Assembly: GCA_963771355.1 (NCBI GenBank)
Contig: CAVYTA010000006.1
Coordinates: 1,312,001 to 1,376,000 of the forward strand
DNA length: 64,000 nt
Direction: 5' to 3'
Source of the DNA: an uncultured Candidatus Rokubacteria bacterium
GTDB lineage: Bacteria; Methylomirabilota; Methylomirabilia; Rokubacteriales; CSP1-6
A program made the position numbers and the translations under genes. The notes below the pieces were generated by a model. The model made no database searches. It had not been told where the DNA came from and saw only the letters and a program-made list of their open reading frames with translations. Positions 21,456 through 36,118 of the stretch are shown here, one piece after another (the first letter of the stretch is position 1; each line of letters begins with the position of its first letter).

Positions 21456-21728
21456 GGACCACCTCCGGGCGGCATCATAGCAGACCTTCGAAAGAGGGCC
21501 CGCCTCACCGAATAGGCTCCACTTCTCGCGCGTCTTTCCCATAGCGCCGCCGCCTGGGAACACCGCCTCACGCGTGGGGGTTCTAGGTCACACGGCGATG
21601 AAACGAAGAGCGGGTTCACGCCCTCTAAACATTAGGTGAACGTGCACATTCAACTGGCAGCGCTGAGATCACGCCCCCGGAACGGGTCAGCAAGGCCGAA
21701 GCGGGCCAACAAGGCCGGAAGGATCGCG

Positions 21729-23321
21729 ATGACCTTTAGGGAAAGCGAAGGCCAAATCTCCCCTGATACTGTAGCTGTTTGGGCGGGAGCACCTACGACG
21801 CGGCGTAAGGATCGCGCGAGCGGGCCCTCCATCGGCCCCCGATTGGTGGCTCGCCGCAAGCCCTCGCTCCTGGCTCCGGTCGCGCTCGGCGAGGGGCTTC
21901 CCGGCGCCCTGCCCGATGCGGGAGACGACGAGGTCGAGAGCCCGGTGGCGGTAGTGCACGCCGCGGAGGAGCCCGGCCTCAGCGAGGAGGCGCTCCGTCC
22001 CTCGCCGGCCGAGGGCGAGGACCCGGTACGGATTTACCTGAAGGAGATCGGCAAGGTCCCCCTGCTGACCGCGCGGCAGGAGGTCGAGCTCGGCCAGCGG
22101 ATCGAGGCGGGCCAGATCAAGCTGCGTGGCGCCCTGGCTGACATCCCCCTGGCGATCGGCCGGCTGCTCACGCTGGTGGACGGGGTGCGGCGCGGCGAGG
22201 TCCCCCTCGACGACGTCATCATCCTGCCCGAGGGCGGCGAGCCCGCCCCCGAGCAGGTCAAGCCGATGATGGCTGCCTTCGCCCGGATCCGGCGCCTCGA
22301 GCGCGAGTCCGAGCGTATCCGGGTCTCGCTCGCGACCAAGCGTCGGGCGGCCGCCTCCACGCGGGCGAGCTACCGCGACTGGATCGCCCAGAACCGGGCC
22401 TCGGTCCGCGGCATCGTCGAGCGACTTCCCCTCAAGCCGGCGCTGGTGGACGGGTTCGTCGCCGAGGTACGCCGCGTCGCCGGCTCGATGCGGGTCGCGC
22501 GCGACGGCGCGGAGCTGCGCGGGCTCGAAGCGCAGGCGGGCCTGGCGCGGAAGCCGCTGCTGACCGCCCTCGCCGAGCTCGAGCAGCACGATCGCGTGGT
22601 TCGCCAGGCCAAGAAGGAGCTGATGGAGGCCAACCTCCGGCTGGTGGTCTCGGTGGCCAAGCGCTATCTCGGGAGCGAGCTGTCCCTCCTCGACCTCGTC
22701 CAGGAAGGCAACCTCGGGCTCATGAAGGCGGTGGATCGCTTCCAGTACCGGCGCGGGTTCAAGTTCTCGACCTATGCCACGTGGTGGATCCGGCAGGCCA
22801 TCACCCGTGCCATCGCCGACCACTCGCGCACCATCCGCATCCCCGTGCACATGGTGGAGACGCTCAACCGCATCTCGCGCGTGAACCGGACCATGCTCAA
22901 CGAGATGGGCCGCGAGCCCACGCCCGAGGAGCTGGCCCGGCGCACCGGCGTGCCGGCGCGGAAGGTCCGGCTCATTCTGGAGTCGTCGCGGAAGCCGCTG
23001 TCGCTGGAAACACCCATCGGAGAGGACTCCGACCTGGGCGATTTCCTGGAGGACAAGTCGGCCGAGTCCCCCAACGACACCCTGATCAGCCAGGACCTCA
23101 CGCATCAGGTCGAGCGCGCGCTGGGCACGCTCTCGCCCAAGGAGAAGGAGATCCTCCGCCTCCGCTTCGGCATCGGCGAGGAAGGCGAGCACACCCTCGA
23201 GGAAGTGGGCAAGCGCTTCGCAGTCACGCGCGAGCGAATCCGACAGATCGAGACCAAGGCCCTGCGCAAGCTGCGTCATCCGCTGCGCGGCCGCGCCCTC
23301 AAAGCCTTCGTCGAGAACTAG
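21729..23321 (+). CDS. RpoD-like sigma-70 factor paralog (regions 1.2, NCR, 2, 3, 4; no recognisable region 1.1)
   Basis: [67 protein letters not shown]; start uncertain (21636 or 21729). Confidence 0.93.
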
Positions 23322-23775
23322 ACCGCCCGTCCGCCGCCTTCTCCCCCCCGGGGGAGAGGGTGCGGGCCGACGCCCGCGTCATCGCGCTCTCGAGGATCCG
23401 CATCGCCATGGCGATCGGGCCCAGGATCCCCGCCACCAGCACCCCGAAGATCAGCTCGTTCAGCAGGGGATCCGCGCGACCGGTCAGCCACAGCACGCCC
23501 CAGAGCGCCAACACGCAGCCGAGCGCGACCAGGAGCAGACGGCGGCCCCGACGGAGCCGCCGCTCGGCGGCGTCGAAGATCGAGCCGCGTCCGGCCGAGA
23601 CATCGGCGCGGGCCGCCTCCGCCGCGATCCGGGCCGCGCCGCGGGCGACGAGGCCGGACGCCGTCAGGGCCAGCACGATGACGATGACGCCCCAGACCAG
23701 GAGCCACGGCACCAGCGCGGCCAGCCGCGGCATCGCGGCGGCCAGGTGGGGCGTGAGCTCCGCCACCGTCGGCAT
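23299..23775 (-). CDS. Hypothetical membrane protein
   Basis: About three hydrophobic stretches; directly downstream of the carboxyltransferase gene; overlaps sigma gene 3' end. Confidence 0.55.
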
Positions 23776-23794: not shown

Positions 23795-25345
23795 CTACAC
23801 GGGCATGACGCCGTGCTTCTTCCACGGCCGCTCCACCTTCTTGGTCCGCGCCATCGCGAGGGCCCGGATGAGCACGGGGCGCGTCTCCCGCGGATCGATC
23901 ACGTCGTCGATGAAGGCCCCGCCCGCGGCGATATAGGGATTGATGAGCCGGCGGAACTCCTCCACCCGCCGCGCCCGCTCCTCGTCCGGATTCGCCGCCC
24001 CCGCGATCTCCTTCCGGAAGATGATATTGGTGCCGCCCTCGGGGCCCATCACCGAGATCTCCGCGGTCGGCCAGGCCACGATGAGGTCGGCCTCGTAGGC
24101 CTTGCCGCACATGACGAAGTACCCGGCGCCGTACGCCTTGCGCAGCACCACCGTGAGCTTGGGCACGGTGGCCTCGCTCACGGCATACAGCATCTTGGCC
24201 CCGTGGCGAATGATGCCCTGCCGCTCCACCTTGGAGCCGACGAGGAAGCCCGGCACGTCCTGGAGGAACAGCAGCGGGATGTGGAACGCGTCGCACAGCA
24301 TGATGAACCGGGCCGCCTTGTCGGCCGCGTCCACGTCGAGCGCGCCGCCCAGCACCATGGGCTGGTTGGCCACCACGCCCACCGGTCGGCCTCCCAGCCG
24401 GGCCAGCGCGGTGACGAGGTTCCGCGCCCACCCCGGCTTGATCTCGAAGAAGTGCCCGTGGTCCACCACCGCGGCGATGACCTTCTTCACGTCATACGCG
24501 CGGCGCGCGCTGTCCGGCACCACCGTGAGGAGAGCCTCGTCCATCCGGTCCGCGGGATCGTCGCAGGGGAGCACCGGCGGCGCCTCCAGATTCGACGAGG
24601 GGAAAAAGGAGAGATACTCCTTCACCGCGGCGAGGCAGGCGGCGTCGTCCGCCACCTCGAGGTCGGCCACCCCGGAGATCTCGGTGTGGACCTTGGATCC
24701 TCCCAGCTCCTCGGGCGTGACATCCTCCCCCACCACCGCCTTCACCAGCGGCGGCCCGCCGAGCGCCATGTGGCTGGTCCCCTTCACCATGGGGACGAAG
24801 TCGGACAGCGCGGGGATATAGGCCGTGCCCGCTGCGCCCGGCCCCATCATGGCGGCCACCATGGGGACCACGCCGGACATGATGGATTCCTCCCGAAAGA
24901 GGTAACCGGACTGGGCGAAGCTGGAACCGATCGCCTCCTGGATGCGCGCGCCCGCGGAGTCGATGAGCCAGATCATCGGCATGCGCTTGGTGAGCGCGAT
25001 CTCCCGCGCGCGATTGCACTTCACTTCCGCGGTGCGCCCCATGGAGCCCGCCATCACCGTGAAGTCGTAGGCGATGAGGGAAGCGGGCCGCCCGCCGATC
25101 TGGCCGAAGCCGGTGACCACGCCGTCGGCCGGCGTCTCCTTGCCTCGCATCGCGGGTGAGATATTGGCGTGGGTGGCGAGGAGACCGATCTCCTGGAAGG
25201 AGCCCGCGTCGAAGAGGCGGTCGACTCGCTCGCGCACGGTGAGCTTGCCCTCGCCGTGCTGCTTCGCAATGGCCTCGGGCCCGCCCATGGCCAGCGCCCG
25301 CTGGCGGCGCGCGCGAAGCTCCTCCACCAGCTCCTTCATGCCCAT
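23795..25345 (-). CDS. Acyl-CoA carboxylase carboxyltransferase (beta) subunit
   Basis: GKLTVRER, DFTVMAGS, DSAGARIQE, LGGSKVH, DVPGFLVG, GIIRHGAK, RKAYGAG, KKHGVMPV. Confidence 0.96.
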   Translation of the reverse strand: MGMKELVEELRARRQRALAMGGPEAIAKQHGEGKLTVRERVDRLFDAGSFQEIGLLATHANISPAMRGKETPADGVVTGFGQIGGRPASLIAYDFTVMAGSMGRTAEVKCNRAREIALTKRMPMIWLIDSAGARIQEAIGSSFAQSGYLFREESIMSGVVPMVAAMMGPGAAGTAYIPALSDFVPMVKGTSHMALGGPPLVKAVVGEDVTPEELGGSKVHTEISGVADLEVADDAACLAAVKEYLSFFPSSNLEAPPVLPCDDPADRMDEALLTVVPDSARRAYDVKKVIAAVVDHGHFFEIKPGWARNLVTALARLGGRPVGVVANQPMVLGGALDVDAADKAARFIMLCDAFHIPLLFLQDVPGFLVGSKVERQGIIRHGAKMLYAVSEATVPKLTVVLRKAYGAGYFVMCGKAYEADLIVAWPTAEISVMGPEGGTNIIFRKEIAGAANPDEERARRVEEFRRLINPYIAAGGAFIDDVIDPRETRPVLIRALAMARTKKVERPWKKHGVMPV

Positions 25346-25425
25346 GGCGGACATCCTTCCGGCGGTAATTCAGTTGCGCGCATTTTTTCCACCTTCGCTC
25401 GCCTCGCCTTCGGCTGCGGCTCGCC

Positions 25426-25932
25426 CTACCCTTTCACGACCGACGTGCGGTAGGAATTGATCCCGGTATCCGGCGGGGAGCCGCTGATGAGGGTGAGCAT
25501 GGTGGCGGCCTCGCTGCGGTGGTGGGTGGCGTGGTTCACCACGTGCTGTAGGAGCGCGCCCAGGGCCACGCGGAACTGGACTCCCTCGGTGTTCCGGTAC
25601 TCGATGGGCCGCGTGAGGTCGGCCTCCCCCAGCGCCTCCACGAAGGCGCGCTGCTCCGCCTCCAGCGCGTCCCAGCGCGCGCGGAGATCCCCCATGCTCG
25701 GGAAGTCGGCGTCACCGGACAGGCGCTTGGGCGACTCGCCCTTCCAGCGCGCGAGCCAGATCGAGTCGGCGCCGTACATGTGGGAGAACATTCCCTTGAG
25801 GGTGGGAAAGCTCCAGTGCTTGCCCAGGTCGCGCGTCACCGGCTCCGCGCCCAGGCCCGCCGCAATATCGAAGAGCCGGTGATTGGCCCAGCGGTGATAG
25901 TCGTAGTGCTCGCGGATCAGCGCCGTGCTCAT
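25426..25932 (-). CDS. DinB/YfiT-like family metalloprotein
   Basis: YHRWAN, H...AD.IWLAR, HVVNHATHHRSE motif. Confidence 0.9.
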   Translation of the reverse strand: MSTALIREHYDYHRWANHRLFDIAAGLGAEPVTRDLGKHWSFPTLKGMFSHMYGADSIWLARWKGESPKRLSGDADFPSMGDLRARWDALEAEQRAFVEALGEADLTRPIEYRNTEGVQFRVALGALLQHVVNHATHHRSEAATMLTLISGSPPDTGINSYRTSVVKG

Positions 25933-25964
25933 GTCGGTCTCCCTCGCTTCCGGTCTTTATTCGC

Positions 25965-26180
25965 CTACTCGAGAACGGCGACGATGTCGCCGTCCTGGAC
26001 CGTCTGGCCCTCCGCCACGCGGATCTCGCGGACCACCCCCGCGCGCGGAGCCTCCACGGGAATCTCCATCTTCATGGACTCGAGCACGATGACGGGGTCG
26101 CCCGCCGCCACCTTGTCCCCCGCCTTGCTGGTGATCTGGAAAACCACGCCCGTGATGTGGGCCTTGACGTCCTCAGGCAT
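25965..26180 (-). CDS. Stand-alone biotin carboxyl carrier protein
   Basis: [10 protein letters not shown] biotinylation motif, 71 aa. Confidence 0.95.
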
Positions 26181-27517
26181 TGAACGCTCCTTGTTCGACC
26201 ATCTGGGTATGCACCCGGCCGGCGCGGAACGCCGCGCTCTCGAGCACGCGCCGGTGAAACGGGATGACGGTGCGGATCCCCTCCACGACGAAGCCGTCCA
26301 GCGCCGCCTGCATCCGTGCGAGAGCCTCCTCGCGGGTGGCGCCCCGGGTGATGAGCTTGGCCAGGAGCGGGTCGTAGTGTACCGAGACCTGCACCCCTTC
26401 CGCGACCCCGATCTCCAGCCGCACGCCGGGCCCCTCGGGCACGGCGAGGCGGGAGATCGTCCCGGGCGAGGGCATGAAGTTCTTGGCGGGATCCTCGGCG
26501 TAGATCCGGCACTCGATGGCGGCGCCGCGCTGGACGATCTCGTCCTGGCGCCACGGCAAGGGCTCGCCCGCGGCCACCCGCAGCTGGGCCTGGACGAGGT
26601 CCAGGCCCGTCACCTCCTCGGTGACCGGATGCTCGACCTGGAGCCGGGTGTTCATCTCGAGGAAGTAGAACTCGGAGCCCTTGACGATGAACTCCATGGT
26701 CCCCGCGTTGACATACCCGACCGCCCGCGCGCCCGCCACCGCGGCGGCGACCAGCTCCGCCTTCACGCCGGGCGCGAGCGCGGGCGCGGGACTCTCCTCG
26801 ATGAGCTTCTGGTGACGGCGCTGGATGGAGCACTCGCGCTCGTGCAGGTGGACGACCTCGCCCCGCGCGTCCCCGAACACCTGCACCTCCACGTGGCGGG
26901 CCTCGGCGAGATACCGCTCCACGAAGAGCGCGCCGGAGCCGAAGGCGGCCTGGGATCGCCGCTCCGCGGAAGCCCACGCCGCGGGCAGCGTGGCGGCGTC
27001 CGGCACCCGCACCATGCCGATGCCGCCCCCGCCCGCCGCCGCCTTGAGCATCACCGGATAGCCGATGCGATCGGCCAGCGTGACGTGCCGCTTCGAGCGA
27101 ATCAAGCGCGCCCTCGCTGCCGGGCACCACCGGCACCCCCGCGGCCTGCATCCGGCGGCGCGCCTCGACCTTGTCGCCCATCTGCTGGATGACGCGCCAC
27201 GGCGGCCCGATGAAGACGAGCCCGGCCTCCTCGCAGGCCTTGGCGAAGCGCCAGTTCTCCGAGAGGAATCCATACCCGGGATGGACGGCCTGCGCGCCCG
27301 TCTCGCGCGCGGCGGCGAGGATGCGGTCGACGTTCAAATAGCTGTCCCGGGCGGGCGCCGGGCCGATCGACACCGCCTGGTCGGCGTCCCGGACGTGAGG
27401 CCAGCCGGCGTCGGCCTCGGAGTAGACCGCGATCGCCTGCACCCCGAGGGCCCGGCAGCCGCGGATGACCCGGCGGGCGATCTCCCCGCGATTGGCGACG
27501 AGGACGCTCGAGAGCAC
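26173..27517 (-). pseudogene. Biotin carboxylase subunit interrupted by a 1-nt frameshift near 27086 (possibly a sequencing error)
   Basis: N-terminal frame has [23 protein letters not shown]-terminal frame has [43 protein letters not shown]; span 1345 nt = 448 codons + 1. Confidence 0.9.
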
Positions 27518-27523
27518 GCGCGG

Positions 27524-28495
27524 TCAGGCGGAGCGGGCGGCCCGAACGTGGGCCACGTCGAGGGCCTGTGCGCGCCAGCCCTCCGGCCCGCCCGCCCAGC
27601 GGGCGGCCAGCGTCACCGATCCGTCGGGACCATCCAGGCGGAGCTTCAGGAGCAGCTGCCGGCCGATGCGCGTGGCGGCCACGATCTCGTGGTGGGTGAA
27701 GCGGGCGGCCGCGAGCACGGAGTCCTCGGCCTCACTCCAGACGGCGTCGCCGGCCAGCCAGCGGCGCACGGCGGGGGCGTCGCGCGCGACCAGGGCGTCA
27801 CCCAGCGCGGCGGCGGCGGCCCGCAGGTCGTCGGGCACGGGCCAGCGGGCGGGCCGGGTCTCGAGACGGATGAACTCCTCCGCCTCCGTCATGCCCTCGG
27901 GCGAGACCGGCGCCGGCACCGGCGCGGGCAGGCCCTCGCCGGTGACCCCGCCCGCGGCGGCGAGCAGCCCACCCAGCCGCTCCGCCCACGCGGCCGCGCG
28001 GGTCTCGGCCGCAGGCGTGGTGGCGAGATGTGCGAGCACGCGCTCGCCCGCCGTGATGTGGCGGCGCTCGTCCTCGGCGCAGCGCGCGAGGATGCGACGG
28101 GTGGGCGGCTCGTAGACGGCGTTGGCGCTGGCGAGGTCGCGCTCGTAGGCGGCCAGCAGATGGGGCTTGAGCACGCGGTACACGCCCACCAGCCGCTCCA
28201 CCGTCAGCTCCGGCGTCTCCGCCGACTCCAGGGCGTCCATGAAGGCGACGAAGCCCTCCCCGGCGGGCTCCGACTCCTGGGCATGGGCGCGCAGCTCGGG
28301 GAGCCGGCGACCGAGCGCGTCGGCGTGCTGGGCATTGTCCCAGACGTGCCGGCCCATGAGGAGCTTGGCGGAGATTTCGGGCGTCAGGGCGAGCCAGCCG
28401 CCCAGGACGCGCATCAGGCGCTCGGTGGCGTAGCGGTAGTGGCGAACGCGGCGGGCGGACTCCTCGACCGAGTGGGCACCTTCCAGCGGGTACAT
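27524..28495 (-). CDS. Ferritin-like domain protein with incomplete metal-ligand set plus C-terminal extension
   Basis: Start ATG 28495; helical pattern with WDNAQH and DERRH at ExxH-equivalent positions; 5 nt after DUF455-like gene. Confidence 0.75.
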   Translation of the reverse strand: MYPLEGAHSVEESARRVRHYRYATERLMRVLGGWLALTPEISAKLLMGRHVWDNAQHADALGRRLPELRAHAQESEPAGEGFVAFMDALESAETPELTVERLVGVYRVLKPHLLAAYERDLASANAVYEPPTRRILARCAEDERRHITAGERVLAHLATTPAAETRAAAWAERLGGLLAAAGGVTGEGLPAPVPAPVSPEGMTEAEEFIRLETRPARWPVPDDLRAAAAALGDALVARDAPAVRRWLAGDAVWSEAEDSVLAAARFTHHEIVAATRIGRQLLLKLRLDGPDGSVTLAARWAGGPEGWRAQALDVAHVRAARSA

Positions 28496-28500
28496 CGAGG

Positions 28501-29256
28501 CTAGTAGACCTGCGAGCGCTGCGTGGTCTTGATGAGGCGCTCGATCTCCTCGTCGGTGAAGCCGCCGAGCTGGCGCGCCTCCGTGGCGATCGAGATCAGC
28601 ACCGCGTCGTGATCCCCGTCCTGCCGCACGCCGCCCAGGTTGAAGCGCTCGTCGATGGTCTCCTGGAACTCGATGGCGCGGCGTCGACGCTCCGGATCGC
28701 CCTCGGTGAGCTTGGTGAGCCACTTCGAGCCCATGCGCACGTGGGTGATCTCGTCGGCGAGGACGAAGTCCACCGCGCGCTCCAGGATGGGATCGCCCAT
28801 CTTCCGCGCGATGTGGACGAGCTGATTGAACACGTCGCAGGCGAGCCCCTCGAGGCCGCGGTTCACGCCCGCCACCCGCGCCGCCGCGTCCTCGGCGCAG
28901 GCGCAGCGCCAGAGGATGGTGGTCTCCGGGAACTCCCCCACATAGCCGTCCAGGTGCTCGAGGAGCCGGAGATAGATCTCCAGGTGGCGGGACTCGTCCC
29001 AGACCTGGCGGGCCATGTCCAGGGTGAACTCCCAGGGCGCGTCGGGAAAGTCGTAGACGCTGCGCCCCGCGCCCTCCATGGCCTGCATCTCGCCCACCAT
29101 GATGCCGTGGACCCGCTCCTTGATGGACTCGCGGCTGCCGAGGTCGGGAAAGGGCGTGAGACCCTGCTCGACCTTGAGCTGCGCGACGTCCCGGGCCCGC
29201 ATGCGGACGAAGCGCTCCTCGCGGGCCAGCTTGTCGTAGGCGATCGGGCGATCCAT
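28501..29256 (-). CDS. DUF455-like ferritin-like diiron protein
   Basis: Start ATG 29256; GEMQAME, WDESRH, LEGLACD, ADEITHV give an E...ExxH...E...ExxH set. Confidence 0.85.
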   Translation of the reverse strand: MDRPIAYDKLAREERFVRMRARDVAQLKVEQGLTPFPDLGSRESIKERVHGIMVGEMQAMEGAGRSVYDFPDAPWEFTLDMARQVWDESRHLEIYLRLLEHLDGYVGEFPETTILWRCACAEDAAARVAGVNRGLEGLACDVFNQLVHIARKMGDPILERAVDFVLADEITHVRMGSKWLTKLTEGDPERRRRAIEFQETIDERFNLGGVRQDGDHDAVLISIATEARQLGGFTDEEIERLIKTTQRSQVY

Positions 29257-29275
29257 GAGTACCCCTTCCCGGCGA

Positions 29276-29293
29276 AATGAACCGCGGTTCATT
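29276..29293. promoter_or_regulatory. Perfect 18-bp palindromic operator over the predicted transcription start
   Basis: AATGAACCGCGGTTCATT is its own reverse complement; 1 nt downstream of the -10 box. Confidence 0.75.
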
Positions 29294-29294
29294 C

Positions 29295-29323
29295 AGTCTA
29301 GTCGAAGCTCGGGTCGAAGGCAA
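29295..29323 (-). promoter_or_regulatory. Sigma70-type promoter of the ferritin-like/carboxylase operon
   Basis: TTGCCT-N17-TAGACT. Confidence 0.7.
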
Positions 29324-29528: not shown

Positions 29529-30704
29529 TTAGAAGGTCAGCGGATCGGTCAGGCGCACCCAGCGCCCGCCTTTCACCACGGCCAGGAACGAGGAGTTGGC
29601 GCCCTGATGCTTGTCGGGGCCGAAGCTGGCCTCGGGGCCGTTGAAGATGTCGCGGTAGCTCTTGATGGACTCGAGCGCCTTGACGAAGTTCTCGGTGGTC
29701 AGCTCAGGGCCGGTCTTCTCCAGGCCCAGCACGGTCAGGTCGGCGGCCACGTGCCCGTAGATCGCGCCGATGTTCGGGTCCACTTTGTAGCGGTCCTTGT
29801 AGCGGTCGAACCACTTCTGAGCGGCCGGGCTCAGCGTGTCGTGATAGGGCATGGCGGTGAGGCCCATGGCGTAGAGCCCTTCGGTCACGCCGCCCTGGGC
29901 CGCGGCCACGAAGAGATCGTAGCTGGCGGCCGAGCCGAGGAAGTCGACGTCGGTCCAGCCGATCTTCCGCGCCGTCGCGTAGGGGACGATCGAGTCGCGC
30001 ACGATGGTGCCGAGCACCACCAGATCGCAGTTGGCGGCCTTCAGCTTGGTGATCTGGGCGCTGAAGTCCTGGTCGGTCGGCTTGTGGGTGACCGTCTCCA
30101 CGATCTTGAGCTTCATCTTCTCCGCCTGCGCCTGCACACCGTCCACCACCTCCTTGCCGAAGTCGGTGTCCTGGTACATGGCGCAGAGGGCCTTCTTGCC
30201 CTTCTTGGTCACGAAGTAGTTGATGCCGGCACGCACCTGGTCCACGTAGCTGGCCGCGCCGTAGAACTTGAGCTTGTGGAAGGGCTCGTACATCGAGCGC
30301 GCCGCGGAGAGCGGAAAGAGGTTCGGCACCCCGGCGTCGAACTGGTCCTTGAAGAGCGCGTTGTTCATCGGGGTGCCGAGGCCGGCCACGATGGCGAAGA
30401 CCCGGTCGCGGTTGATGAGCTTGGCGCCGACCTGCACCGCGCGCGGCACCTGGTACTGGGTGTCCTCGACGACCAGCCGGATCTTGCGGCCGTTGACGCC
30501 GCCCGCCTCGTTGACCTCGTCGAAGCGCATCTTCACCGCATTCGACGACGAGACCCCGTAGGTGGCGGCGGGCCCGGAGAGATCGGTATGCATGCCGAGC
30601 ACGATCTCCGCCTTCGTCACGCCGCGGGTCTCCTTCTGGGCGGTGGCCACCCCGGCCACCGCCACCGCGGCGGCCAGCACGCTGACTGCCAGTAGCTTTC
30701 TCAT
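29529..30704 (-). CDS. ABC transporter substrate-binding protein (Liv/branched-chain type)
   Basis: Signal peptide; LGMHTDLSGP, NEAGGVNGRKI, ED..Y. Confidence 0.93.
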   Translation of the reverse strand: MRKLLAVSVLAAAVAVAGVATAQKETRGVTKAEIVLGMHTDLSGPAATYGVSSSNAVKMRFDEVNEAGGVNGRKIRLVVEDTQYQVPRAVQVGAKLINRDRVFAIVAGLGTPMNNALFKDQFDAGVPNLFPLSAARSMYEPFHKLKFYGAASYVDQVRAGINYFVTKKGKKALCAMYQDTDFGKEVVDGVQAQAEKMKLKIVETVTHKPTDQDFSAQITKLKAANCDLVVLGTIVRDSIVPYATARKIGWTDVDFLGSAASYDLFVAAAQGGVTEGLYAMGLTAMPYHDTLSPAAQKWFDRYKDRYKVDPNIGAIYGHVAADLTVLGLEKTGPELTTENFVKALESIKSYRDIFNGPEASFGPDKHQGANSSFLAVVKGGRWVRLTDPLTF

Positions 30705-32562
30705 GCCTCGCTCCTTTCGTACATGCCGTCGATGAGGTCCTTGTACTTCACGTTGATGAACGTGCGCTTCAGCTTCATGGTGGGGGTGAGCTCCTCGTCC
30801 TCCGCGGTGAGGAGTTGCTCGATCAGCCGGAACTTCTTGATGGTCTCCACCCGGGCGAGCTCCTTGTTCACCCGCTCGATCTCGCTCCAGATGAGATCCT
30901 GCACCTCGGGCGCCCGGCAGAGCGAGGTGAAGTTGCTGAAGGGGACGTCGCGCTCCTGGGCGAACTGGGCCACCGTCTCGTGGTCGATCATGACCAGGCA
31001 GGAGAGGAACTTGCGCCGGTCGCCGATCACCACCGCGTCGGAGATGTAGGGCGAGAACTTGAGCTGGTTCTCGATCTCGGAAGGAGTGACGTTCTTGCCC
31101 CCGGCGGTGATGATGATGTCCTTCATGCGGTCGGTGATCCGCACGAACCCTTCCTCATCCATGGTCCCGACGTCGCCGGTGTGGAGCCAGCCGTCCACCA
31201 CCGTCTCCGCCGTCTTGTCCGGCTTGCCGTAGTAGCCGAGGAAGACGTGCGGGCCCTTCAGGAGGATTTCGCCGTCGGGGGACAGGCGGACGTGCGTATC
31301 CGGCCGGGCGGTGCCCACCGTGCCGAGCTTGATCCGGTCGCGCGGCATGGCGGTGGCGAGACCGGTATTCTCGGTCTGGCCGTACACCTCCGTCATGTTG
31401 ATACCGAGCGCGAGGTACCAGCGGATCAGGTCCGGGGCGATGGGGGCGGCGCCGGTGGCCGCGCCGCGCGCCCGGTGGAGCCCGATGGAGCGCTTGACGT
31501 TGTCGAGCACCAGAAAGTCGGCGATGCGGAAGGCGAGGCGCTGGAGCAGGGACGGGCGCCGGCCCTGGATCTTTCCCTCCGCCAGGGCGAGGCCGACCCG
31601 GATGGCCTGTCCGTAGGCGAACCGGCCGAGCCAGGTGGCGTCGCGCATGCGGAGGGCCACCCCGGAGTAGAACTTCTCCCAGATGCGGGGCACCGCGAAG
31701 AACAGGGCGGGGGCGACTTCACGGATGTTGTCGGGCACCGTGTCGATGCTCTCCGCGAAGTTCACGGTGGAACCGGTGTAGAGCGGGTTGAAGACCGTGA
31801 ACGTCCGCTCGGCGATGTGGCACAGCGGGAGGAAGGAGAGCTGCTGGTCGCCCTCACGCAGCTCGGTGATGAAGTCGGCGTAGGCGAGCTGGAAGAGGAT
31901 GTTGCGGTGGCTCAGCATGGCGCCTTTGGGGGGCCCGGTGGTGCCGGAGGTGTAGACCAGGATGGCCAGGTCTTCGGGCTTCGGGATCTCGACCATGCGG
32001 TCGAAGGCCCCCGGGTGCTCGCGGTCGTACCGACCGCCGAGCTCGAGCAGCGCCTCGAAGGTCATGACCTGGTCGTCCTGGAAGCCGTGCAGACCCTCCA
32101 TGTCGTAGACGACGATCTTCACCAGGGCCGGGCAGCGCGCGCGCACTTCGAGGATCTTGTCGAGCTGCTCCTCGTTCTCCACGAAGAAGAAGCGGGTACC
32201 GCTGTCGTTGACGATGTACTCGACCTGGCGGGCGGAGTCGGTGGAGTAGATGCCGTTGGGGATGCCGGCCACCGACATGACGCCGAGATCGGTGTAGAGC
32301 CACTCCGGTCCGTTGTCCGCGAGGATCGCGACCACGTCGCGCGGCTCGAGCCCGAGCGCCACGAGCCCCAGGCCCACCCGCCGCGCCCGCTCGCCGTAGT
32401 CGCGCCAGGAGATACCCCGCCAGATGCCGAGGTGCTTCTCGCGCAGGGCCACGCGATCGCCCCGCTCGCGCACCACGTGGCGAAAGAGCCGGGGCAGGGT
32501 GTCCTGCCCGTGCACGGTGAAGGCCGCGCGATCGGACGAGGAGACCGGGCCGGGTGCCGTTC

Positions 32563-32572
<10 letters not shown>
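30701..32572 (-). CDS. Long-chain acyl-CoA synthetase (AMP-binding)
   Basis: Start ATG 32572; YTSGTTGPPKG, YGQTE, WLHTGD, DRMKDIIITAGGKN, ELTPTMKLKR. Confidence 0.95.
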
Positions 32573-33336
<764 letters not shown>

Positions 33337-33340
33337 CGGG

Positions 33341-34099
33341 TCAGCCTCCGAGGTACGCCTTGATCACGTCGGGATGCTCCTGCACTTCGCGTGACGTCCC
33401 GCAGGCCACCACGCGCCCGTAGTTCAACGCCAGCACCCGATCGGACACCGCGCTCACCAGGCTCATGTCGTGCTCGACCATGAGCACGGTGATGCCGAGC
33501 AGCGTGCGGATGTCCTGGATCCAGAAGGCCATGTCCGCGGTCTCCTCCACGCTGAGGCCGGAGGAGGGCTCGTCGAGCAGGAGCAGCGCCGGCTCGGTGC
33601 AGAGCGCGCGTCCCATCTCGACGACCTTCCGCACCCCGTAGGGCAGGTTCACCACGAGGCTGTCGCGATAGGCCTGCAGGGCGAGGAAGTCGATCACCTT
33701 CTCGGCCGCTTCGCGGTGGGCGCGCTCCCGCGCCCGTACGCTCGGCAGGAACAGCAGCTCGGCGGCCAGGTGCGGGCGGGCGTGGGCGTGACGGCCCAGG
33801 AGCAGGTTCTGCAGCACGGTGGCGTGCTCGAACAGCTCGATGTTCTGGAAGGTGCGCGCGACGCCGCGGCGGGCAATCTCGTGGGGCGGCACCTGGGTGA
33901 TGTCCTCGTCCCGGAAGATCAGGCGGCCCTGGGTCGGGTCGTAGATGCGGGAGATCAGGTTGAAGATCGTGGTCTTGCCCGCCCCGTTGGGCCCGATGAT
34001 GGTGAAGACCTGGCCCTGCTCGACCTCGAAGCTCACGCCGTCCACGGCCCGGATGCCCCCGAAGTTCACCACGAGCTCGTCGACGGCGAAGAACGTCAT
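33341..34099 (-). CDS. ABC ATP-binding protein (LivG-like)
   Basis: Start ATG 34099; GPNGAGKT, ARTFQN, LLDEP, VEHDM, VIKAYLG. Confidence 0.95.
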   Translation of the reverse strand: MTFFAVDELVVNFGGIRAVDGVSFEVEQGQVFTIIGPNGAGKTTIFNLISRIYDPTQGRLIFRDEDITQVPPHEIARRGVARTFQNIELFEHATVLQNLLLGRHAHARPHLAAELLFLPSVRARERAHREAAEKVIDFLALQAYRDSLVVNLPYGVRKVVEMGRALCTEPALLLLDEPSSGLSVEETADMAFWIQDIRTLLGITVLMVEHDMSLVSAVSDRVLALNYGRVVACGTSREVQEHPDVIKAYLGG

Positions 34100-35238
34100 C
34101 GCAGCCGCTCCGAGCGCATGTAGGTCTTCTGGCGTCGGAAGGTGGCGCGCTTGTAGAGCGGGAAGGTCGAGAAGAAGACCTGCATCTTGCGCCACCGGCC
34201 ATAGATGCCGAGCGGCTCGAACAGGATGAAGAGCACCAGGATCAGGCCGAAGATGCCAGGCTCGAGGCCCGGCTGCTTGACGAAACGGTCGAGCCCCAGG
34301 TACACGACGGCTCCCGCGTCCTGGCCGAGCAGCGCCACCGCCTGGCCCGCCCACTGGGGCACGCGGTCGCGCGCCTCCGAGATCAGCACCGGCAGGATCG
34401 CCACGAACACCGCGCCGTAGAGCGCGCCGTGCAGACTGCCGAGGCCGCCCACCACGACCATCAAGAGAAATTGGATCGAGAGGAGCACGCTGAAGATGTC
34501 CGGGGCCAGGTAGCCGATCTTGTGCGCGAACAGCGCGCCCGCCGCGCCCATGAGACCGGCGGAGTAGGCGAAGGCCATCGTCTTGTAGCGCGCGAGGTGC
34601 ACGCCCATGGACTGCGCAGCGATCTCGCTGTCGCGGATGGCCACCCAGGCCCGGCCGGTGGGCGCCCGGAGCACGTTGGCGGTGAGCCAGAGCCCGGCGA
34701 TCAGCACGGCCACGCAGAGGAAGTAGAACGCGACGTCGGAGGCGAACGAGACGCCGAAGATCACCGGCTTGTCCACCGGCCGGCCCTTGAGGCCGTGGGT
34801 GACCCGGTCCCAGCGCGTGAACACTTCCTGGATGATCAGCGCGAAGGCGAGCGTGGCGATGGTCAGGTAGACGCCGGTCATGCGGAGCGCGGGCAGACCC
34901 ACCAGCACGCCCGCCGCCGCCGAGATCGCCGCGGCCAGCGCCACCGAGACCACCCAGGGCAGGCCGAGATCCTGGAGACAGAACACGTGGGCGTAGGCGC
35001 CGATGCCGAGAAACGCTGCGTGTCCGAGGCTCACCAGGCCGGTGTAGCCGGCCAGCACCATCAGCGAGAGTCCGCAGAGCCCGTAGATGAAGACGAGGCT
35101 CACGTCCACCAGATAGGACGGCACCGCCAGCGGCAGCAGGATCACGGCCGCGAGCAGGCCTCCGTACCAGCGGCGCTGGACGCGATCGCGGAAGAGGCCC
35201 AGGTCGTCGTCGTACGCGGTCTTGTACGGAAAGCGCAT
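34096..35238 (-). CDS. ABC permease (LivM-like)
   Basis: GYTGLVSLGHAAF, YLTIATLAF, AIRDSEIAA..MG, VVGGLGS. Confidence 0.94.
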   Translation of the reverse strand: MRFPYKTAYDDDLGLFRDRVQRRWYGGLLAAVILLPLAVPSYLVDVSLVFIYGLCGLSLMVLAGYTGLVSLGHAAFLGIGAYAHVFCLQDLGLPWVVSVALAAAISAAAGVLVGLPALRMTGVYLTIATLAFALIIQEVFTRWDRVTHGLKGRPVDKPVIFGVSFASDVAFYFLCVAVLIAGLWLTANVLRAPTGRAWVAIRDSEIAAQSMGVHLARYKTMAFAYSAGLMGAAGALFAHKIGYLAPDIFSVLLSIQFLLMVVVGGLGSLHGALYGAVFVAILPVLISEARDRVPQWAGQAVALLGQDAGAVVYLGLDRFVKQPGLEPGIFGLILVLFILFEPLGIYGRWRKMQVFFSTFPLYKRATFRRQKTYMRSERLR

Positions 35239-35245
35239 GCGCCGG

Positions 35246-36118
35246 TCAGACCTTCTTCCGACCCACGGTGCCGAACAGACCCTGGGGCCGGATGGCCAGC
35301 ACCAGGAGCAGTACGATGTAGGCCGCCACGTCTTTGAACCCCTGGGGCAGGTACACGCCCGAGAACAGCTCGATCAAGCCGATGGTGACGCCGCCGACCA
35401 GCGCACCCGGGATGGAGCCGAAGCCGCCCAGGACCGCGGCCGCGAAGGACTTCAACCCGATGAACCCGAGGTTGATGTCGATCAGCGACACCGGCGCGAG
35501 CAGCACGCCGGCGATGGCGGCCACCCCCGCCGAGATGGCCCAGATCAGCGAGAACATTCGCTTCACCGGGATGCCCATGTAGTAGGCGGCAAGCTGGTTC
35601 TGGGAGGCGGCCTGCATGGCGACCCCCACGCGCGAATACGTGAAGAAGGCGTAGAGCAGCGCGCACAGGAGCACCGTGCCCACGATGATGGCCACGTACT
35701 CGTGGCTCACGCTGACCGCGCCGAGCCGTGTCGTCCTGGCGCTGAACGGGGTCGGCAGCGTGTAGATCTCGGAGCCCCAGGTCATGGAGGCGAAGCTCCG
35801 GAACATGGCGCCGAGGCCGATCGTGAGCATGACCACCGCGAACTGGGGCTGGCCGATGACGCGCCTCAGGAGCGTGGCGTCGAGGACGGCGCCGAACAGC
35901 GCGACGATCCCCACCGCGAGGGCGAAGGCGGCCCAGTAGCCGACTCCGTACCAGACCACGAACATGTAGCAGACGAAGGCACCCAGCATGAGGAGATCGC
36001 CCTGGGCGAAGTTGACCAGCTCGGTGGCCTTGTAGATGAGGACGAAGCCGAGGGCGACCAGGCCGTAGATGCAGCCGACGGCGACACCGTTCAGGGCGAG
36101 TTGCAGAATGGTATCCAG
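35246..36118 (-). CDS. ABC permease (LivH-like), probable CTG start
   Basis: Conserved N-terminus LQLALNGVAVGCIYGLVALGFVLIYKATELVNFAQG lies in frame upstream of the ORF-track start (35989); VLGGFGS motif. Confidence 0.9.
   Translation of the reverse strand: MDTILQLALNGVAVGCIYGLVALGFVLIYKATELVNFAQGDLLMLGAFVCYMFVVWYGVGYWAAFALAVGIVALFGAVLDATLLRRVIGQPQFAVVMLTIGLGAMFRSFASMTWGSEIYTLPTPFSARTTRLGAVSVSHEYVAIIVGTVLLCALLYAFFTYSRVGVAMQAASQNQLAAYYMGIPVKRMFSLIWAISAGVAAIAGVLLAPVSLIDINLGFIGLKSFAAAVLGGFGSIPGALVGGVTIGLIELFSGVYLPQGFKDVAAYIVLLLVLAIRPQGLFGTVGRKKV

Follow-up and report, generated by a model that had tools for sequence, protein, structure and literature searches.

We analysed a window of 64,000 nt from the genome of an uncultured Candidatus Rokubacteria bacterium (5.5 Mb, 99.8% complete; window C6:1312001-1376000, 70% G+C), and the subject here is a string of six genes in it that begins with two ferritin-like genes, called A and B. 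All six genes lie on the minus strand, and open reading frames together with Pfam and NCBIfam matches confirmed the order given in a preliminary description of this DNA: A (DUF455), B, a biotin carboxylase (BC), a biotin carboxyl carrier protein (BCCP), a DinB-family gene and an acyl-CoA carboxyltransferase (CT) (Table 1). The spacing is 5 nt between A and B, 6 nt between B and BC, -8 nt between BC and BCCP, 32 nt between BCCP and dinB and about 71-80 nt between dinB and CT, in keeping with the short gaps and the BC/BCCP overlap described before, and co-transcription of the operon rests on these gaps and on the promoter. Gene A starts at ATG 29256 and not at 29292, and the protein is 251 aa long from that codon in 40/40 relatives. 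A consensus promoter scan found 0 promoters at this site. Many of the 40 relatives have equivalent hexamers ahead of A, and because of this recurrence the TTGCCT-N17-TAGACT promoter (29323-29295) of the preliminary description is not a chance match. Profile searches of the operon proteins also agreed with that description in finding no reductase gene in the operon.

Table 1. Features of the A-B operon; positions are those of the window
Feature	Position	Strand	Evidence or remark
Sigma-70-type promoter, -35 TTGCCT (29323-29318), -10 TAGACT (29300-29295), N17 spacer	29295..29323	-	
Palindromic operator TGAAC-N4-GTTCA, right behind the -10; predicted Bacillus-type FadR site	29276..29293	.	Top genome-wide site
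Gene A, 251 aa, DUF455 ferritin-like, predicted catalytic (alpha) subunit	28501..29256	-	Pfam PF04305; ligands invariant
Gene B, 323 aa, predicted non-catalytic beta subunit with NTF2/SnoaL-like tail	27524..28495	-	Model, Foldseek, hhalign
Stand-alone biotin carboxylase (BC), GTG start	26173..27517	-	Pfam/NCBIfam; single frame in relatives
Biotin carboxyl carrier protein (BCCP), 71 aa, MKM motif	25965..26180	-	NCBIfam PRK05889 above cut-off
DinB-family protein, accessory	25426..25932	-	Pfam PF05163; 30/40 loci
Short dispersed repeat, REP (repetitive extragenic palindromic)-like, dinB-CT spacer	25386..25432	.	57 blastn matches in genome
PccB-type acyl-CoA carboxyltransferase (CT), accessory; start may be 25345	23795..25354	-	Pfam PF01039
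Predicted small membrane protein, 19 nt downstream of CT	23299..23775	-	Matched in 1/40 relatives

For comparison we collected 40 Rokubacterial loci picked via B, a second set of 76 loci picked via A (Myxococcota-type, Gamma- and Alphaproteobacteria, Acidimicrobiia and Binatia, with one cross-hit taken out) and a third set of 34 further Acidimicrobiia and Binatia loci picked via B; together with 80 more, many of them short, the loci outside Rokubacteria number 190. Protein A belongs to Pfam DUF455 (PF04305; 95.1 bits against a gathering cut-off of 34.3, E 6.6e-27), and its ESM Atlas neighbours are all DUF455 clusters. The full diiron ligand set that had been claimed for it is present as E56, E88, H91, E136, E169 and H172 (E/ExxH/E/ExxH), is invariant in 41/41 Rokubacterial sequences and recurs in 49/49 paired homologues of other groups, except for H172 (48/49). 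A is better conserved than BC, with a median identity of 84% versus 71% across the 40 relatives. The structural model of A is weak because the alignment is shallow (predicted local distance difference test, pLDDT, 56), and in it the ligands would be borne by helices H42-62, H75-101, H134-153 and H156-184, consistent with the four-helix bundle with E, ExxH, E and ExxH ligands of ferritin-like diiron oxidases and oxygenases. The first 14 Foldseek rows for this model were all structures of aldehyde-deformylating oxygenase (ADO; best E 1.3e-3), a likeness that we treat as a lead only, and a profile search with A gave R2lox at E 0.011 and ADO only at E 0.3-0.9. No NCBIfam model covers A or B, and PDB sequence searches gave no meaningful match for either, a match to the Crov588 repeat being spurious. 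Apparent longer forms of A were mostly frameshift or read-through artefacts and were left out of the count of fusions given below. We found no functional description of DUF455/PF04305, and no description of the pair or the operon, in a literature search that had supplements outside its range and did not cover most subscription papers; in the accessible parts of two papers the family appears as a fold assignment and in a proteomics mention (PMC4520260, PMC9988556).

Protein B consists of a degenerate ferritin-like domain (residues 1-190) and an NTF2/SnoaL-like domain (about 215-323), and its model is confident (pLDDT 94). At the six ligand positions it has T24, N54, H57, K110, E143 and H146. 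Thus the WDNAQH motif, the lysine in place of the third glutamate and the retained DERRH motif had been read correctly, and in this copy the first ligand is lost as well (T24). None of 39 B proteins from Rokubacteria has Glu at position 54, all 39 have Lys at position 110, and in 49 B proteins of other groups most of the remaining ligands are likewise lost. B is a paralogue of A (hhalign 94.3%, E 1e-7, over 176 columns). It is not a member of PF04305 (13.6 bits), matches MiaE_2 below the cut-off (E 4e-5), has no match to PF05138 (PaaA_PaaC), falls in no Pfam family above cut-off, and has unnamed ESM Atlas neighbours. The proposed Foldseek check of B supported a ferritin-like fold: toluene monooxygenase beta subunits came first (1T0Q chain B, E 2.4e-3; none below 0.001), and a wider structure search placed ADO first (Z 18.0, root mean square deviation 2.6, 183 residues aligned), with 1T0Q_B (Z 16.0), R2lox (15.9) and PaaAC (3PVR, 14.7) among the further matches. 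Hence B has the same fold as A with incomplete ligands, as the second subunit of alpha-beta diiron hydroxylases does. Foldseek matched the tail of B to NTF2-like proteins; this domain is a gene of its own in the second Rokubacterial family and likewise, as two genes, in Binatia, and it did not turn up at Myxococcota-type loci. By hand count, the two main families of Rokubacteriales have strong matches to B (E < 1e-30) in 136/158 and 17/21 of their genomes; elsewhere in the phylum matches are weak or missing. B-type genes were also present in 48/151 genomes of an Acidimicrobiia sample and in 8/81 of a Binatia sample, and a plasmid search gave no match for B.

The two genes keep together. They are adjacent in 40/40 Rokubacterial loci, in 50/76 of the loci picked via A and in 25/34 of those picked via B, and the gene order varies (A-B, B-A, B-C-C-A-A) with changing neighbours. 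A search with B gave 1009 representatives, and from the best 150 of these we tested 26 two-domain proteins (408-547 aa). In all 26 the N-domain resembles B (112-202 bits) and the C-domain resembles A (22-136 bits), and 25/26 have a DUF455 match. Trees of A and B over 113 pairs (of 148 loci) are congruent in their main clades, with a rank correlation of distances of 0.77, and proteobacterial pairs and one Binatia pair are nested among Myxococcota-type pairs in both; such congruence is a sign of co-inheritance, not of binding, and kin share ancestry. Because their adjacency holds across several phyla, their trees agree and relatives contain them as one fused protein, A and B likely form a heterodimer, as predicted from their genes, and the preliminary idea of a catalytic and a degenerate partner stands with the heterodimer itself likely. 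In Acidimicrobiia, a conserved gene of 205 aa follows B-A in 14/34 loci (e.g. L252:9296-9910); it has no Pfam or NCBIfam match and is a possible third component.

In the PaaA/PaaC core of phenylacetyl-CoA epoxidase and in the alpha and beta subunits of bacterial multicomponent monooxygenases, a catalytic diiron subunit is joined to a paralogous subunit without a full site. The matches of the B model to 1T0Q chain B and 3PVR place A-B near these systems (3PVR, 3PW8, 1T0Q). In contrast to PaaA/PaaC, however, the operon has no PaaB, PaaD, PaaE or phenylacetate genes, A falls under the PF05138 cut-off (12.8 versus 28.5 bits), and the genome has a separate PaaA-family gene elsewhere. Unlike the multicomponent monooxygenases, A and B are much smaller subunits, and neither the operon nor the recurring neighbours of the pair encode a reductase or an effector. 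By analogy, A-B would work like PaaAC or a monooxygenase hydroxylase and yet is a member of neither. The PaaA/PaaC-family gene mentioned (C6:994927-995646; L352:6928-7680) is a single gene flanked by those for a paaK-like ligase and a paaI-like thioesterase; the genome has no second copy above cut-off, and no reductase was seen beside it.

Cyanobacterial ADO is the best structural match for both A and B. BioE has the same six-ligand pattern as A according to the accessible text of PMC12704756, and long acyl chains are the substrates of both known enzymes. On the other hand, identity to these enzymes is 13-19%, no acyl-ACP reductase or biotin-synthesis genes occur here, and BioE is described in the same part of that source as a homodimer, unlike the catalytic and degenerate A-B pair (PMC12704756). 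The ADO-like fold, the shared ligands and the adjoining biotin-dependent genes would suit a BioE-like enzyme that splits acyl-CoA to give pimeloyl-CoA for biotin synthesis and so supplies the adjoining carboxylase. The 99.8% complete genome has no bioB above cut-off and no bioD, though, which rules out such a supply role, and the control is FadR-type rather than by a biotin-pathway regulator, so that we leave this idea only the faintest chance.

The palindrome behind the -10 box recurs in the A promoters of 23/40 relatives; many A promoters without it, as judged by eye, have a leaderless -10 box at 7-8 nt from the ATG. Scanning the genome with a matrix gave three sites above 25 bits, which lie in the A promoter, ahead of an acyl-CoA dehydrogenase pair and across the start codon region of a TetR gene. 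This TetR gene, fadR (C6:1240322-1240924), scores 202.5 against the FadR equivalog cut-off of 200 and has an operator of its own over its start, as an autoregulated FadR orthologue should. This autoregulation led us to discard the alternative of a DesT- or BioQ-type operator. The operon headed by fadR (C6:1236610-1240924) also contains enoyl-CoA hydratase, SCP2 and class III polyhydroxyalkanoate (PHA) synthase genes, and adjoins phaB- and phaR-like genes. In 18/18 genomes of the first family the operator pattern gave 1-6 sites each, with 0 matches of the reversed control. Forty operator loci, 20 from the search output and 20 hand-picked among non-A sites, belonged to fadR (12), acyl-CoA dehydrogenase (10), MoxR-CoxE (6), thiolase (4), AurF-like (3) and A (1) genes, with 4 unassigned, and the operator is common to beta-oxidation genes above chance, as in a FadR regulon. 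In Bacillus halodurans, FadR dimers bind 16-bp ATGA(A/G)T repeats whose halves are 4 bp apart, and long-chain acyl-CoA releases the dimers, according to the accessible text of PMC5397183, and the Rokubacterial operator has this 16-bp repeat form. The A-B pair is thus predicted from these sites to be under a FadR-type repressor. The Bacillus regulon described in the same text likewise includes FadR itself, enoyl-CoA hydratase, acyl-CoA dehydrogenases and thiolase (PMC5397183), whereas the predicted Rokubacterial regulon has as extra targets two ferritin-like diiron genes, the carboxylase, MoxR-CoxE and the PHA synthase operon. The acyl-CoA type of substrate put forward in the preliminary description is supported through this operator; the identity of the substrate is what we infer.

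Similar control recurs in part outside Rokubacteria. Six Binatia genomes have a similar repeat ahead of tetR-B-C-C-A-A, with one site per genome in the 5/5 searched, and FadR is the only NCBIfam match of this TetR, below cut-off. In Acidimicrobiia a different palindrome, TTGACC-N4-GGTCAA, which may resemble the mycobacterial FdmR site, precedes B in 6-7/23 loci, and five such genomes have 15 sites against 0 controls. These sites precede B (4), aldehyde dehydrogenase-family genes (3), acyl-CoA dehydrogenases (2), and one each of thiolase, TetR, luciferase-like monooxygenase, ABC1 kinase, VWA protein and an unassigned gene; no model above cut-off was found for their regulator. The neighbours of Myxococcota-type pairs vary, and many lipid-degradation genes are among them.

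MoxR/CoxE-type pairs mature metalloenzymes. The MoxR AAA+ ATPase and CoxE-type VWA pair of the predicted regulon (C6:1782216; also L159, L165, L166, L168, L171 and L187) could serve A-B. An AurF-family diiron gene (C6:1862451-1863416) has the same FadR-type operator in three relatives (L160, L185, L197) and would add a second diiron protein to the predicted regulon.

Taken with the ligands and the partner, this control leads us to favour A-B as an alpha-beta diiron oxygenase that acts on a fatty acyl-CoA in fatty-acid degradation, with the carboxylase separable from it, a reading to which we give about one chance in two. A and B would bind each other as the catalytic (alpha) and structural (beta) subunit of one enzyme, in which A would carry two irons and activate O2. 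Release of the FadR-type repressor would allow the enzyme to be made, and a long-chain or branched fatty acyl-CoA would then be oxidised, by a hydroxylation or an oxidative cleavage that opens the chain to beta-oxidation. The NTF2-like domain may bind or deliver the acyl chain, electrons would come from a ferredoxin or flavoprotein encoded elsewhere, and the carboxylase would remove a short acyl-CoA, e.g. propionyl-CoA. We counted 22 2Fe-2S matches and a single FAD_binding_6 protein in the genome, none of them tied to this operon.

Several observations weigh against this reading. No structural match of the A model is under E 0.001. No reductase is linked to the pair in any lineage, whether in the operon or among recurring neighbours. 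A stands without a nearby B in 26/76 loci, about 11 of which are second copies in pair-bearing genomes (judged by contig name) and 2 of which lie at a contig edge, and 9/34 B loci have lost A. The operator is missing from 17/40 A promoters and, in the second family, from 11/12 genomes (it was present in 1/12), and no palindrome was seen before Myxococcota-type pairs. Moreover, co-regulation does not name a substrate. Finally, one family of fused B-A proteins (L272-L351, the family of P0162) lies in sugar-catabolism clusters, and hence the architecture is not tied to acyl-CoA and has other substrates too. Other genes seen in the clusters of the fused protein are GH106, GH38, alpha-amylase, sugar ABC transporter, LacI, ureidoglycolate-lyase-like and URO-D-like genes, and one cluster member of the P0162 family is named Chloroflexota.

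Two further explanations were weighed. The first takes A-B to be a soluble desaturase of fatty acyl-CoA or acyl-ACP, induced when long-chain acyl-CoA builds up, like mycobacterial DesA1/DesA2 under MadR. There too, in the accessible text of PMC8872791, two ferritin-like genes are under a TetR repressor released by acyl-CoA, so that such control of desA1/desA2 is known, and A has the same ligand set and a weak FA_desaturase_2 match (E 0.011). That similarity is a trace, however; desA1 and desA2 have separate promoters, and no fusion or complex evidence was seen for DesA1/DesA2 in that part of the source (PMC8872791). A also fails the soluble acyl-ACP desaturase family (PF03405; 15 bits versus a cut-off of 22.7), its length is some 80 aa below that of the Pfam profile, desaturase structures rank far under ADO for its model (ranks 43 and 49), the genome already has two membrane desaturases and another FA_desaturase_2 protein, and the other regulon members are degradative, so that we consider a desaturase unlikely. 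A ferritin-like protein with a weak FA_desaturase_2 match also precedes BadF/BadG/BcrA/BcrD activator-type genes (C1:176653-181354; L353:1653-6354). Under the second explanation the pair is no oxygenase; it would be a ferritin-like protein that handles peroxide or iron and shields cells while fatty acids are oxidised. Dps, bacterioferritin and Mn-catalase are indeed among the structural matches of B (Z 13-16), and the want of a linked reductase would suit it. It is improbable in our view, since both proteins add helices to the four-helix bundle and can be matched to ADO across 183 residues, a degenerate partner and an NTF2 domain of the lipid-binding type fit an enzyme with an organic substrate, and the operator is FadR-type.

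The carboxylase genes are complete in kind. BC is split in this assembly by a +1 frameshift at 27084-27086, and because the extra base is absent from four same-genus relatives and from near-identical strains in four independent metagenome studies, it is most likely an assembly error. The BC catalytic motifs are present, and a separate BC, a short BCCP with the MKM lysine and a PccB-type CT resemble three-subunit acyl-CoA carboxylases and make up a biotin-dependent acyl-CoA carboxylase. The nearest PDB sequences of CT are PccB (E 1e-154, versus 1e-88 for MccB), its score is under the mmdA cut-off, and the operon carboxylase is additional to the genome's own acetyl-CoA carboxylase and mutase-linked propionyl-CoA carboxylase.

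The preliminary description placed the biotin carboxylase in a single pathway with the diiron pair, so that one would supply the other with its substrate. The tight gaps and the single promoter speak for this, as do the presence of A-B-BC-BCCP in 34/40 Rokubacterial loci and a CT orthologue distinct from the housekeeping PccB next to methylmalonyl-CoA mutase. The gene-neighbourhood survey proposed at that time did find the linkage in Rokubacteriales, though loosely. The 40 loci have BCCP in 40, full BC in 34, DinB in 30 and CT in 22 (and one more at a locus edge), but full BC and CT together in just 18; the pair lacks full BC in 6/40 and CT in 17/40, and the 17 genomes without CT in the operon have no orthologue elsewhere (best CT at most 51% identity, versus 75-95% for orthologues). 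Conversely, of 10 BCCP loci taken from genomes where the B match is weak or absent, 8 are without the pair and 2 lie at a contig edge; BCCP is kept in all 10, and two (L356, L357) keep the whole BC-BCCP-DinB-CT without the pair. Gene A was not found in any of the 5/5 such genomes searched. Outside the order, BC, BCCP and DinB are in 0/190 loci (0/76, 0/34 and 0/80), and CT occurs in 2/76, at 34-36% identity and not adjacent. Unrelated neighbours in Rokubacteria (sigma factor, cinA, malic enzyme, ABC transporter) are equally syntenic. Thus co-occurrence of the pair with BC and CT does not hold across lineages, a coupled pathway was not borne out and has poor odds, and because pair and carboxylase are lost independently and none are linked outside the order, the carboxylase genes are a separable module that probably shares only its promoter with the pair.

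BCCP is the most constant gene of the locus. It is single-copy in 94/96 Rokubacteriales genomes and survives deletion of A, B, BC, DinB and CT (L354, L355, L360, L361); it may serve an orphan CT at C6:644021, which stands apart from any BC or carrier gene, and a CT like this one is present in 17/17 genomes searched. The repeat between dinB and CT is short, palindromic and often tandem at its 57 genomic matches, and the small membrane protein behind CT is a late addition outside the conserved unit. Upstream of A lie an ABC transporter and a long-chain acyl-CoA ligase (FadD11-like, below cut-off; window 29529-35989), and a related cassette stands upstream of A in many relatives, which fits a fatty-acid context. 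An RpoD-like sigma gene (window 21636-23321) is close to the pair in Rokubacteria, where it is convergent, and such a gene is also near the pair at most Acidimicrobiia loci (L238-L271); this may be coincidence.

DUF455 is widespread, and no function for it was found in the literature searched. DUF455 proteins with their degenerate partners may be one more, widespread class of ADO-like alpha-beta diiron oxygenases, of which the Rokubacterial, Binatia and Acidimicrobiia members would cleave or hydroxylate fatty acyl-CoA with O2, in a reaction new to the literature, to bypass a block of beta-oxidation, with the Rokubacterial carboxylase fixing the short acyl-CoA released; we offer this wider view as speculative and think it doubtful as a whole. 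The carboxylase link is specific to one order and loose even there. As the evidence points to a degenerate partner for this subfamily, an enzymologist should produce the two proteins together, and fatty acyl-CoAs are the candidate substrates suggested by the predicted FadR control. If the favoured reading is true, the pair would be a small heterodimeric scaffold for C-H oxidation, and fatty-acid breakdown in abundant soil bacteria would gain a step that depends on oxygen.

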